This document shows positions 27,861-59,866 of a stretch of 64,000 bases of DNA, in pieces (position 1 is the first letter of the stretch; each line of letters opens with the position of its first letter). The DNA comes from Eledone cirrhosa (lineage: Eukaryota): assembly GCA_964016885.1 (NCBI GenBank), contig OZ024740.1, positions 356,314,001 to 356,378,000 on the forward strand. Direction: 5' to 3'. The notes beneath the pieces are model-generated. The model did no database searches. It was not told the origin of the DNA and saw nothing but the letters and a program-made list of their open reading frames with translations. Made by a program: the position numbers and the translations under genes.

Positions 27861-28731
27861 GTAAGTATTCATGAGTACATTCAGACATATATTCAATGTG
27901 ACGAATTGGCAGAAACATTGAAGCATCGGATGAAGGGACATGCGTTCAGAGTTGAAAACCGGTTGATATCAACTTCACCTGTCATTATTCCGGTGTCAAT
28001 AAACAACGTAGCATTATATGGCGGTGGATTGATGGTATTGATAGAACATCGAACATGTTGCTTTCCGAGATTTTTACCAGCCTTGTGCGTGCTGAATTCA
28101 AATCCCACCAGTCCTTTTGTCTTTAATCTATTACACTCTGTTGCAAATATTTTGGTGTTGTCCCCAATTTAAAGATGCTTTCATCCCTACCATCAGCCTA
28201 TGAAGTTCAGAGAAGTGTCATGGGCTGTTCCCTCCATTCTAAATAACTGATAAAAAGTATTTCCTCTAAACCTATTCGATGAACGTTTAACTGGGATTTA
28301 CTATTAGCTATTAAACTATTACAGTTGGCCTACTTTTCGTTCAGGAATAACATTAAAGAACTAATTAAACTTTTATGTATTCCGATGGAATCTACATTGT
28401 ATTAGAGTATTGTTCTCGTATTTCAAATTACCGCAGTGAACAATACAATTATGTAGCAAAGTAACATTCGTTAACATATTAGTGACGACTTATAATAGCA
28501 TGCTGTTTAAAGAGATGTAGTTTGTTAAACTACTGTGTGTAATATGATTGACTTGTTAAAATTAACAGTCACTCTTAGTTGTCTTGGTGCATTAATTTAA
28601 AGACTGGAAAGGTGCAAAGGTAAATACAAGCAATAGAAATTGATATACACGCACACACACCCACACACACGCATATATATATATATTCAATGATATTAAA
28701 TAAATGGAGACTATATTTATAAAACCATATT

Positions 28732-28796
28732 TATTTTATTATATATATTTCAAGGGCAACCAAGACAACATTGGTACGCTTTCATCAGATAAAATA
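28732..28796 (-). ncRNA. Type-I hammerhead ribozyme, family A, mirror copy
   Basis: Reverse complement of 28942-29006. Confidence 0.8.
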
Positions 28797-28941
28797 CCAA
28801 GTTTGTTTTATAAATAGAGACGTACCCATGAAAATCATACCTTATCGGTTGGAAATTCACTGGGTATTCACTACCCAGTGAATTTCCAACCGATAAGGTA
28901 TGATTTTCATGGGTACGTCTCTATTTATAAAACAAACTTGG

Positions 28942-29006
28942 TATTTTATCTGATGAAAGCGTACCAATGTTGTCTTGGTTGCCCTTGAAATATATATAAT
29001 AAAATA
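28942..29006 (+). ncRNA. Type-I hammerhead ribozyme, family A
   Basis: tattttat-CTGATGA-aagcgtaccaa(tgttgtc)ttggttgccctt-GAAA-tatat-ATA-ataaaata; 8-bp stem I. Confidence 0.82.
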
Positions 29007-29335
29007 AATATGGTTTTATAAATATAGTCTCCATTTATTTAATATCACTGAATATTTACTCCAGTAACTTGTTGAGTGCTCTAAATCAGTTATAAACATT
29101 TATGTTTGTCGGACTTCCAACAAATTAAATACAACTTCTACTTATATATATATATATGTATGTATATATATATATATATATGTATGTATGTATGTATGTA
29201 TTTATATGTACATATATATATGTATGTGTGCGTGTCTGTGTCTGTGATCTACACTGGTCATAGACACACACACACATATACACACACATATATATATATA
29301 CATACACACACTCACACACACATATATATATATAT

Positions 29336-29525
29336 TTAATATAGAAAGGCTTCTACAGGACTAGAAATGTTTCATTCGGTAGAAATCCTCAGGCTTCCTG
29401 ATGATTTCTACCGAATGAAATAGTTCTAGTCCTGTAGAAGCCCTTCTATATTGAATATTTATACTCTCCTATGTATTGAGTACTTTACTTACTGTGGTTA
29501 CCCCCGATTGAACCCGGGAAAAAGA
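29336..29525. mobile_element. Family C HHR foldback with tail, in (TA)n
   Basis: Arms ~29336-29393 and ~29397-29455; homologous to 40141-40275. Confidence 0.85.
29392..29442 (+). ncRNA. Type-I hammerhead ribozyme, family C
   Basis: ggcttc-CTGATGA-tttc(tacc)gaat-GAAA-tag(ttctagtc)ct-GTA-gaagcc. Confidence 0.78.
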
Positions 29526-29590
29526 TATATATATATATATATATATATATATATATATATATATATATATATATATATATATATATATAT

Positions 29591-55683: not shown

Positions 55684-57075
55684 TATATATATATATGTAT
55701 ATATATAAATATAGAGATATATATACTTATATATATATATACATATATAAAATTGATTTTTGAATTGTAGAAAACTTGAAACGCAGTAGGATATCTGGCC
55801 AGTTTTCCAATCATTTTTAGCCGATTCTCTAAAAACCTATTTTTTCCACTATACTTTTGCGTTTGAGATTTTCTTAATTTCTGAAAAGAAAATCCTAGCT
55901 CACAGGACATTGCAATGTTTCTGCAAAAAAGTCGACGTAAAGTATTTGTTCAGCAATGTTGTTATGCGATGCGAGTTTGGTTGTTAATTGTGGGTGTATT
56001 TTAAAGAGAATGCCAACGTTATTTTGGTAATACTGATGAAATATTTTCCACATCTTACAGATAATGACCAGATAGATAATTGACATTAAACATTAATTTT
56101 ATATGTTATATATAGGCCGGATGGCTGGAGCAGGTAAAAGAGTAAAAGAGTAAAAGAGTAACAATCCACACTCATACATACTGTTTATACCACAGGACTA
56201 ACTAAACACCGCCCTGAACAATGTGTAGATCATTCCAGCAATAAATACGGTGATTCACAAAAAATATTAAAAATAACACATTCACGTGTCCCGGTATTTT
56301 AATTTTTATTTTCTAATCTATCCCACCGTACTCTCCCGACAAAGGATAAACATCCAATACATTGAACTCTTTTTTTTTTCTTTATCATCCTCAGCGTGAA
56401 TTTAATAACACACTGTTTTTGTATCTCCGTGTTGTCCTTTTATATACAATATATACAATATTGATACTAGATGTAATCATAAATATTATCAATACATTAT
56501 ATGATACAATTACACATTGTATAACCACTCGTTCTACTTTAGTAAAAACTACACACACGTTAACGAATTTATTTTTATCCGTTGAAGAAACAGGATTTAG
56601 TGTAATGAGGGAAATATAATATACGAAAATGTTATAAGTTAAATCTAACAGAAAATGATTATCATGTAATATTCTCGTCTATGCTATGAAATTAATTGAC
56701 TGCTCTTAATGTTTTACTCTATATTGATATTTATTCAAATATATAGTCTATAAATTGAAACAACTTCTTAATCTACAAAATGTATTCATAGTTTGTTTTA
56801 TTATCATCTCAGTATATTGCTGTACATCTTTCAATGAAGAAACTATAAACAAACGCACACACACACACACAACCACACACACACACACATATATATATAT
56901 ATATATATATATATATATATATATACGCACATATATCTATTTGTGCGTGTGTGTGTGTTATATATGTTATATACTCACGCACCACACACACTAACATACA
57001 CATAGATGCAACCTCCCCCCCCCATATATATATATATATATATATATATATATATATATATATATATATATATAA

Positions 57076-58310
57076 ATAATGGAAAAATTTGAACAGGGAC
57101 AAAACAGAGAGGCAGTACAATAAATGTTTATTAATTTCACGCTCAGGAGAGTGGGGGGTAGGTGGGGGGACGACGTTTCGGGCATAAGCCCTTCCTCAGG
57201 TGAGAAGTGTGTGGGAACAGAGTTCAAAAGGTGTGTAGGGGAGTGGTGGAGAGACATATAGCGAAAGGAAACGGTGCGAATGAAAAAAACACAAATAAAG
57301 ATAACAAATAAAAAATAAAAATAAAGCATGATCAAAATACAAGGAATGAGAAAATTTAAAAATAAAGGCATGATCAAAATAAACTGAAATTAAAAGGGGG
57401 GTAAACAGGTGGTGGAAGGGTGTGGGGTGAGTAGGGGCGGTGGCAGGTGGAGTGGGGAGAGGGAGACGAGGTGTCGGAGCGGGCAGGGCTGAAGGTGGTG
57501 TGTGTGTGTAGGTGTGCGTGTGTGTGTGTGTGTGTGTGTATGTGAAAGTAAGGGTTGGGGGAAGAACGGGGTTGCATGTTCAGGAAGAGGTGTGTGTGGG
57601 GGGTGTTTTTGTGGGTCGGAGTGTCTGTGCGTGTGTGGATAGGGGGTAGGGGGAGAGGAATCAGGAGGCTGAGGGTGTAAATATGTGGTGGGAAGCACGT
57701 GTGTGTGGGGTTTAAGCGTGTTGTGGGTGTGGGTGGCGTGTGGAGAAAACATTTTTTTGGGGTGTGTGTGTGGGTGAGTTATATAGGTGATTACGTAAGA
57801 GGATGGTTGAAAAGTTGGTAAGTTCCAAGGATGTTTAGTGGATTGGTTGTAAGTCAAATTCTGCGTGTGGGTAATCCATGAAGCGGTGGTCGGAAGAGGA
57901 GAGATGTGGGGTGCGCGCGCAACAGGAAGTGGTCAGCAGTGGGAGTGCTGTGGTCTGTTAGTGCTGGGAGGTGCTCAGATGGCATAGCAGCAGTCGGTGG
58001 AATGGTAAGGGGGCGAGGATGGGTAGGTGTGAAAGTTGGAGTGAGGAGGGTGTGTGTGTGTGTGTATTAGTAGGGGTGTTAGTGGGATGAGTGAGTGTAG
58101 AGCGAGGGTGTGGGTGGAGCGGGGAGAGAGAAGGGTGTGTGTGGTTCTATGGAGGGAGTGTGGTGTACTGGTGTGTGTGTAGTTTGATGAAGAGGTGTTA
58201 GTGGGTGTTAGTATACGGGAGGTGGGGAGGGGTTGAATGCAGGTGTGAGTGGGGGTTAGTGGTGGTAGGGTGTGTAGAGTTGGTGGTGTACGAGGGTGTG
58301 TGGGTACGTG
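57076..58310 (-). mobile_element. Family H, longest copy
   Basis: Shares the terminus, HHR-like core (57169-57200) and GTGCGCGCGCAACAGGAAGTGGTCAG with the 31114 copy. Confidence 0.72.
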
Positions 58311-59318
58311 TTATATATATATATATGCGTGTGTGTGTTTTTACTGTGCTTGTGTGTGAGTGGATATATATGGAATAACTTATTTTATATATAATCTTGT
58401 TTAATGAAACTTTGAATTTTTATGTTCACTCCCGAAGAAAATTTGATAATATAACATTTTCAAAATGGTAGCTAACTATACGCAAATATATCTTGTCAGT
58501 TTTAGGAGATTATTTATTTCGATATTAATGCACATTTCGTCATTGATAAATATATAAAAGATATTTGCTTCTTCATAAAAGCACACACATACATATCTCG
58601 TACACTCTCATACATACATATATATATATATGTGTGTGTGTATGTGTGTTTGTGTGTGTGTGTGTGTGTGTGTGTGTGCGTGTGTGTGTTTGTGTGTGCG
58701 TGTGTGTCATTATGTGTTTGTATGTATATGCAATGAATAGAAACAAGGGGATGGGACAGAGAGTGTATTTTTGTCTATATATAACCAACATACACACATG
58801 CATGTGCCCGTGTATGTTTACTTATATAATGCATGTGTCTGTAAATTGTATTTATCTATTTATCTATTTATTGATTTATTTTTTATTTTCTATTTATTTT
58901 TTCTATTTATTTTTCTATCTATCTATTTTTCTATCTATTTATTTTCCCATATATTTTTCTATCTAATTTTATATATATTTACTTTTCTATATATATCTAT
59001 TTATTTTTCTATCTACTTATAACAGTAAATATTATATTAGAAAATAATTTTAACAACTAAATAATCGTAAATATACGTACCATTAGTAGATATATACTTA
59101 AAATTTATTCCCCCATATTAACTTTACATGAGTTCTATTCATCCTCTTGTTAATTTATTCTCTCTATCTCTCTCGTAATATTAATATTTTTCCTCTCTCT
59201 CTTTCTTTTCTATCTTTCTCCAGTGTCGTTTAAATAAACGGTTGTTTTTCAATTATTTACACATTCATTTGCATATTCACACATAAGTTTGAATAATCCC
59301 TAATATATTTCCACTATA

Positions 59319-59585
59319 CAGTGAATTTCCAATCGATAAGGTATGATTTTCATGGGTACGTCTCTATTTATAAAAAAACTTTGTATTTTATCTGATGAAA
59401 GCATACCAATGTTGTCTTGGTTGCCCTTGAAATATATATACTAAAATAAATATGGTTTTATAAATATAGTTTCCATTTATTTAATATCACTGAATATTTA
59501 CTCCAGTAACTTGTTGAGTGCTCTAAATCAGTTAAAAACATTTATGTTTGTCGGACTTCCAACAAATTAAATACAACTTCTACTT
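59319..59585 (+). mobile_element. Family A single-arm copy with HHR at 59384-59448
   Basis: Near-identical to 28876-29143; ends in (TA)n. Confidence 0.88.
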
Positions 59586-59634
59586 ATATATATTATATAT
59601 ATATATATATATATATATATATATATATATATAT

Positions 59635-59866
59635 AACGAAGGAAATGTGGTAAGGAACCAGGTGGACCATAACGCACCAAAGTACTCAATACTTGAGGTA
59701 GTAGAGTGGGTAATAGGAACCAGTAAGACCCCGACAGCTGAGCTCAAGCCGTGGAATTACCCCTTGAGAAGATCGGCTATTTAAATACCAGGATAAATTT
59801 TCATTTAGTCCAGAATTAGCCGTCGAAACGGCTTGAGCTCAGCTGTCGGGGTCTTACTGGTTCCTA
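59635..59866. mobile_element. Family B foldback carrying the complete HHR fold (59759-59852, deviant core)
   Basis: acccc-TTGAGAA-gatcggcta...tagccgtc-GAAA-cggc(ttgagctca)gct-GTC-ggggt. Confidence 0.8.

Follow-up and report, generated by a model that had tools for sequence, protein, structure and literature searches.

Asymmetric foldbacks in (TA)n tracts of the Eledone cirrhosa genome: 5′-truncated, head-to-head Penelope-like insertions, probably primed from both ends of a cut on one RNA repeat

How does an inverted repeat arise whose two arms end at two different, fixed positions of the same element? The question is raised by a window of 64,000 nt in the 3.0-Gb genome of Eledone cirrhosa (assembly GCA_964016885.1, contig OZ024740.1, here C1; C1:356,314,001–356,378,000), in which a preliminary description had listed eight foldbacks and ascribed them to Penelope-like elements (PLEs). 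All eight were recovered where it placed them, between (TA)n runs, with an arm identity of 93–100% in a self-comparison of the window and one-sided overhangs of 34–153 nt: 34 nt at 9846, 91 nt at 28687, 72 nt at 29336, 153 nt at 38290, 44 nt at 47769, and 80 nt at each of 29592, 55483 and 59636. Self-inverted matches of at least 80 nt numbered nine in the window, versus none in each of 10 local shuffles, and a ninth, compound foldback absent from the earlier list was found at 41061–42507. These structures are 5′-truncated PLE insertions placed head to head; the two 3′ ends of the cut target probably each prime at a different site of the same RNA repeat.

The foldbacks belong to at least six PLE families (A–F) inserted in (TA)n, in agreement with the identity first proposed. 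Family F carries the Pfam GIY-YIG domain above cut-off in both arms (47769–49900), and the family B arms derive from the 3′ end of an element 3.6 kb long, in whose 722-amino-acid frame reverse transcriptase (RT)-like and endonuclease-like motifs were read by eye; the family B and C proteins are not recognised by Pfam. Family B combines RWR replacing RWK, DKT, a CxCX5C-type linker (intact only when two copies are compared), CxxC, CxH, an absence of CCHH and a C-terminal endonuclease; judged from this motif set, which apart from RWR is the one listed for the clade, it is a Hydra-type (Hydra clade) PLE. Families C and D are linked to endonuclease frames by similarity, one family D copy lying downstream of a frame 43% identical to that of family B, and no open reading frame (ORF) was linked to families A and E within 1.5 kb. 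Features by which endonuclease-bearing PLEs (EN-PLEs) are recognised were found here: a single ORF with RT and GIY-YIG, a partial tandem that creates pseudo-long terminal repeats (pseudo-LTRs) with a tail that is the start of the body, and an inverted 5′-truncated copy with a one-sided tail. Hammerhead core motifs were detected by pattern search in families C, D and E and in the unit at 41061, and in family B a hammerhead-like fold with a non-canonical core was read by eye; Rfam scans returned no hammerhead at the foldbacks, only microRNA-type hairpin matches below cut-off, and folding of the family B end gave a z of −0.13. The family B core (29682–29790 and genomic copies) was also seen in two forms, C-starting (49 motif matches) and U-starting (15), only one of which would keep the core pair.

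The arms of the eight foldbacks, and of a further family B pair at 13934–14080, are as follows; family B coordinates place the short end at 0 and the tail end at +80.

9846–9934, minus strand: short-ended arm of family A, with 2,174 exact core matches in the genome
10046–10168, plus strand: tailed arm of family A, overhang 10135–10168, no ORF linked within 1.5 kb
13934–14006, minus strand: tailed arm of family B, +16 to +77, no overlap with its partner
14007–14080, plus strand: T-run junction and short-ended arm of family B (about −57 to +3)
28687–28866, minus strand: short-ended arm of family D with hammerhead core
28872–29142, plus strand: tailed arm of family D, tail 29052–29142
29338–29393, minus strand: short-ended arm of family E with hammerhead core
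29397–29524, plus strand: tailed arm of family E, no ORF linked within 1.5 kb
29589–29668, minus strand: short-ended arm of family B (−76 to +3)
29688–29844, plus strand: tailed arm of family B (−76 to +80)
38290–38540, minus strand: family C arm that stops at the short site of its family instead of the tail end
38559–38654, plus strand: family C arm that breaks off at an internal (TA)6 of the element, an exception to the rule
47769–48786, minus strand: short-ended arm of family F with GIY-YIG C-terminus
48842–49900, plus strand: tailed arm of family F with GIY-YIG C-terminus, tail 49857–49900
55480–55545, minus strand: short-ended arm of family B (−62 to +3), the most frequent class
55547–55683, plus strand: tailed arm of family B (−56 to +80)
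59636–59752, minus strand: tailed arm of family B (−36 to +80)
59752–59867, plus strand: short-ended arm of family B (−114 to +3), further 5′ than its tailed partner

Where the arms end is most readily answered for family B, for which exact patterns across the genome give 9,048 short ends, 8,756 tail-continuing sites and 20,122 cores, 88% of the cores being short or tail-continuing in a ratio near 1:1. TTCC followed by TAT closes the short end at all four positions originally named (14078, 29591, 55481 and 59866), and the proposal that both outer ends are fixed is upheld. The long end had been equated with the true 3′ end of the element, which is incorrect: because the tail continues into the element body in full-length partial tandems (6 of 20 long loci checked, plus L158) and TAT directly follows both sites, the long end is a second internal site, as in PMC11167929. 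Full-length family B copies are partial tandems with upstream repeats of up to about 1 kb, their long ORF-bearing arm ends at either site, and a TA run lies beyond the tail end in 89 of the 91 entries for which that end was located. Across families the tails measure 34–108 nt; the family E short end is spread over about 20 nt, and the real tail of family C, about 48 nt, lies beyond the short site in other copies. The foldback at 38289, formerly read as a tail-plus-short pair, is of another kind: its long arm reaches the family C short site, and its partner breaks off at an internal (TA)6. Within some tailed arms (TA)n has been expanded or newly inserted into at a TA-rich site (L118:1576–1741, L334 and L342); the elements' own TA sites therefore serve as later targets.

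Are the two kinds of end combined at random? Across the first 63.7 Mb of C1, which contain 93 short and 100 tail sites of family B, 48 head-to-head pairs were formed by coordinates, of which 47 were tail plus short, one was short plus short and none was tail plus tail (p 1.7e-13 against independent choice at 1:2:1), and the sole short-plus-short pair is a tailed arm split by (TA)18. Reading of all first 100 short-end matches, one of which was dropped as a false site, gave 99 true short ends with 91 tailed and no short partners; the remaining eight comprise four solo ends, two long copies without a partner in 8.5 kb and two whose partner is broken before the site. A larger set of 175 family B pairs over all retrieved loci, a non-random sample, held 161 pairs of tail plus short. 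Among the first 30 matches of each other family, all eight typed pairs of family A were mixed (five by sequence, three by coordinates; one further unclear), as were 10 of family D (two probably duplicates; one ambiguous, four broken or unclear, about half of the copies solo), 14 of family E (ten matches being two copies carried within larger repeats) and 11 of family F (one unclear). Pairing of one end of each kind is near-strict in family B, families A, D, E and F agree, and family C has exceptions. Three candidate deviations were discarded: L356, taken for tail plus tail, is two insertions, and L241 and L242, taken for short plus short, have identical flanks and are read as a larger inverted duplication. 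The latter two (C1:26.512–26.519 Mb) appear as an inverted duplication of 4 kb in which copies of families E and F are mirrored, and a single family E stub, borne with its identical flanks on a larger repeat, is present eight times in 7 Mb (L263–L280).

Fixed outer ends, TA targets and similar sizes could equally describe miniature inverted-repeat transposable elements (MITEs) or foldback DNA transposons, copied palindromic masters, or assembly artefacts, an explanation that we consider hardly credible and that is already refuted for family B. Symmetric terminal inverted repeats around a fixed interior, the mark of a MITE, were not found in this family: the ends are asymmetric, and among the 91 pairs of the junction set 84 junction strings are distinct, while the arms are 3′ ends of elements with RT and GIY-YIG and differ by 0–6% in 15 of 16 long overlaps. 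When three raw short-read runs and one contig set were aligned to a family B junction, reads displayed (AT)n loose ends at both family B sites and strand-switch joints from about −57 to −47, so that the family B structures were not made by assembly. The junction at 55483 itself was not confirmed from the short reads, in which other copies dominate, and a read-end pile at 3999 of the junction reference (55553 in the window), probably a library cut site, was not used.

The centres of the foldbacks, originally said to vary, do so in their junction strings but not in their general position: 66 of 91 short-ended and 54 of 91 tailed arms start at −63 to −50, with only two and three, respectively, at −75 to −64. 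Microhomology was scored at 37 of 86 junctions, a blunt joint at nine and filler at 40, and A or T runs of at least 6 nt stand on the cDNA side of seven junctions, two of them on both arms. Position −61 of family B is the A of TCATTT, which we take to resemble an initiator, and in family D the arms stop no more than 2 nt from the A of a YCACT motif. TCACT has been named initiator-like in a rotifer pseudo-LTR (PMC3846280), and the transcription start has been placed inside the pseudo-LTR (PMC8557442). We infer that the common 5′ stop is run-off at the 5′ end of the transcript. Cleavage at the putative hammerhead site (−17) was rejected as its cause, only 2 of 91 tailed arms starting there. A second feature of the same 91 pairs is that tailed arms stop at −23 to +21 in 20 cases and at +22 to +62 in none.

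The relation between the arms bears on whether one was copied from the other. Overlap, formerly held to be general, is usual but not universal, being absent at 13934–14080 and also in those 6 of 91 genomic pairs in which the tailed arm begins at or beyond 0. In 22 of 91 pairs the short-ended arm outreaches its partner on the 5′ side by at least 15 nt, the difference amounting to as much as 1,300 nt, and in 5 of 91 the tailed arm does so, in line with the earlier idea that the arms are templated separately; as either arm can be the one that extends further, simple fold-back is ruled out. A cDNA fold-back or an RNA self-priming hairpin, subsequently resolved by the endonuclease at TA-rich sites, draws on published proposals of self-priming (PMC3846280) and of endonuclease resolution of the tail (PMC8557442); it predicts ends of one kind each and identical arms, and the microhomology at 37 of 86 junctions and the TA-rich nature of both sites suit it. 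The second arm should, however, be contained in the first, contrary to those 22 pairs; a short-primed cDNA would lack the tail, some arms have no overlap at all, nearly half of the scored junctions (40 of 86) hold filler, and two internal starts have been demonstrated in vitro (PMC11167929). As a sole route fold-back is largely refuted, and we judge it improbable.

If the arms are copied separately, do they share a template? Arm length is coupled: both arms extend beyond −75 in four pairs, the short-ended arm alone in two, the tailed arm alone in none and neither in 85 (Fisher p 5.6e-6), and for long elements with a visible partner that partner is also long in 11 of 13. An independent strand jump in each arm was accordingly rejected as the source of long copies, the arms being long together. 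Subfamily sites of partner arms agree at 123 positions versus 7 mismatches, where random pairing gives about 53 mismatches (16 long overlaps; the sites are linked), the subfamily is common to both arms in 138 of 139 short pairs, and partner arms have 19 rare variants in common, versus a mean of 1.9 in shuffled pairs (maximum 8 in 200 shuffles). Coupling in subfamily, rare variants and length therefore favours one RNA repeat copied twice, and lends no support to the contention that a single RNA cannot explain the arms. A classical form of twin priming on a tandem transcript, pairing the tail site of a downstream repeat with the short site of an upstream one so that the arms overlap in sequence and not on the RNA, would need no displacement of one cDNA by another and accords with full-length copies that are partial tandems; locus L012 has its shape. 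On this scheme, however, long tailed arms should face short partners, a combination found in 0 of 91 pairs, and in 85 of 91 both arms are short and share a stop; the scheme is highly improbable.

A stronger competitor, which we nonetheless hold to be unlikely, is an asymmetric dimer carrying two RNAs of one source locus, one subunit per start site. No displacement is needed; strict pairing and overlap follow directly, subfamily agreement is expected provided that only one source is active at any moment, the Anolis protein is itself predicted to form a dimer (PMC11167929, Fig. 2 legend), and L161 and the two tail-plus-tail pairs considered below fit two templates. On its own, however, the dimer accounts neither for the coupled arm length (p 5.6e-6; 11 of 13) nor for the piling of tailed arms near the short site (20 versus 0). 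Copying of one RNA repeat from both sites, short site first, covers all of the template data, and the two-RNA dimer most of them.

From the fixed ends, the pairing, the continuation of the tail into the body, the clustered 5′ ends and the shared ancestry of the arms, we infer the use of one RNA and the start-site steps as follows. Both 3′ ends of a cut (TA)n target would prime reverse transcription on one RNA repeat, one at the short site and one at the tail site; priming from both cut ends at two sites, as first suggested, fits the data and has an in vitro precedent in an Anolis PLE (PMC11167929). The cDNA of the short site would be made first and displaced by the polymerase arriving from the tail site, a displacement that copying one repeat twice would require. 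In most events the transcript's 5′ repeat would be copied up to run-off at its start (−61 in family B), sometimes with A runs added, the rarer long copies would use a downstream repeat, and the two cDNA ends would then be joined through microhomology or filler. More tentatively, as possible rather than probable, we suggest that an integration complex copies one RNA two times in a set sequence, with each end of the cut allotted one of the two internal start sites and some nine-tenths of events yielding paired strong-stop run-off products.

Several points weigh against copying of a single repeat from both sites. The other 14 of the 175 family B pairs comprise two true tail-plus-tail pairs (L175 and L294), one short-plus-short-like pair (L161) and 11 deletions, broken arms or tandem repeats; family C has two exceptions beside five mixed pairs in seven, plus the window foldback at 38289, where a short end is paired with an internal (TA)6 break; and L012 joins a long tailed arm to a short partner. 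A subfamily in common would equally be expected if two RNAs came from one source locus, or if conversion had acted between the arms. A structural pause could also produce the common stop, given that −61 falls within the loop of the putative hammerhead helix II, and read joints place tailed-arm starts at about +29 to +42, so that this zone is depleted and not empty. Junction calls were corrected by hand in 21 of 91 pairs (hairpin ambiguity, indels). Lastly, in its accessible portions PMC11167929 records no start-site difference between strands and does not report pairing.

Four further features of the window are as follows.

10241–10342, minus strand: solo family B tail (+5 to +80), its 5′ break joined to five telomeric repeats
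10783–13913, minus strand: broken long PLE with RT and C-terminal GIY-YIG-like frames, related to family C (55% identity to family C loci)
41061–42507, strand unassigned: foldback built from partial tandem copies of a hammerhead-bearing unit of 478 nt, by eye tail-type on the left and short-type on the right
59312–59584, plus strand: solo tailed copy of family D

The broken PLE ends at a family C short-type site, and the telomeric repeats at 10241–10342 are oriented as expected if telomerase had extended the cDNA end from a GGGT seed. The 478-nt unit is non-coding, and both arms at 41061–42507 exceed one unit length, which suggests a tandem or circular template. At L161:1129–3868 a strong T-to-C excess lies on one genomic strand over two oppositely oriented copies; it could stem from retrocopying of an edited RNA or from assembly polishing, and its use as an RNA-editing barcode was dropped, the excess tracking the genomic strand in both copies. 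Elsewhere in the window, 4474–7774 holds broken frames, presumably of a Helitron-like replication/helicase protein by their motifs, and a 69-nt tandem repeat, while 17368–22094 and 23281–24629 (the latter flanked by (AAT)n) hold broken retrotransposon frames that, again from motifs, we take to be L1/Tx1-like and RTE- or R4-like, respectively.

Formation of the inverted ends of PLEs has been called undefined (PMC8557442) and the steps after priming unvalidated (PMC11167929). The architecture and the two starts were already known; what is added here is the count of the pairing. The counts exclude independent choice of start site and simple fold-back, and near-strict pairing, coupled length and common stop together narrow an open mechanism, whose prediction that every cut shows both kinds of start, each templated by the same RNA, is testable in the existing in vitro system. 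Literature searches, with older Drosophila Penelope papers outside their coverage, returned no count of pairing and no report of paired run-off copies, and neither an octopus repeat paper (PMC13282606) nor a retrozyme preprint (10.64898/2026.07.22.740005) mentions these ends in its accessible portions. In annotation, stubs of this kind, which number tens of thousands in the genome, could pass for MITEs or microRNA hairpins. Should one RNA indeed be used twice, the origin of the inverted structure would be settled, and the stubs would map the transcription start and both priming sites of each family to the base, from DNA alone.

In L1 twin priming, two target ends prime one RNA and leave an inverted 5′ part, exactly the shape of the non-overlapping pairs described here; unlike in L1, the second site is fixed, the first is internal, and the arms usually overlap (only 6 of 91 tailed arms start at or beyond 0). 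Closer parallels lie among PLEs, for which inverted overlapping pseudo-LTRs, a one-sided tail, (TA)n targets, extension of both strands and two internal starts have been published (PMC3846280, PMC8557442 and PMC11167929). Adineta Pen2a and the general EN-PLE scheme (PMC3846280; PMC8557442, Fig. 2 legend) share overlapping head-to-head arms, a tail at one end, partial tandems, a TATA/initiator-like motif in the pseudo-LTR and (TA)n targets with the elements of E. cirrhosa; in that scheme, however, the tail is optional or often one-sided and 30–40 bp long, whereas here pairing is near-strict, tails span 34–108 nt and most copies consist of paired short stubs that share a 5′ stop. The Hydra clade (PMC8557442, section 11) matches family B in its motif set and (TA)n insertion, although family B is 3.6 kb long, about 1.3 kb of it 3′ non-coding sequence, compared with less than 3 kb in that clade, and its hammerhead core deviates from the canonical form. 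Anolis Poseidon (PMC11167929) belongs to a different clade and its starts are not homologous to the target, whereas the family B sites have a 3-nt TAT match to the (TA)n primer; its template spans the pseudo-LTR/ORF junction and hammerhead cleavage is unneeded, and, as is likely in E. cirrhosa, both strands are cut and extended and two internal RT starts define the tail.

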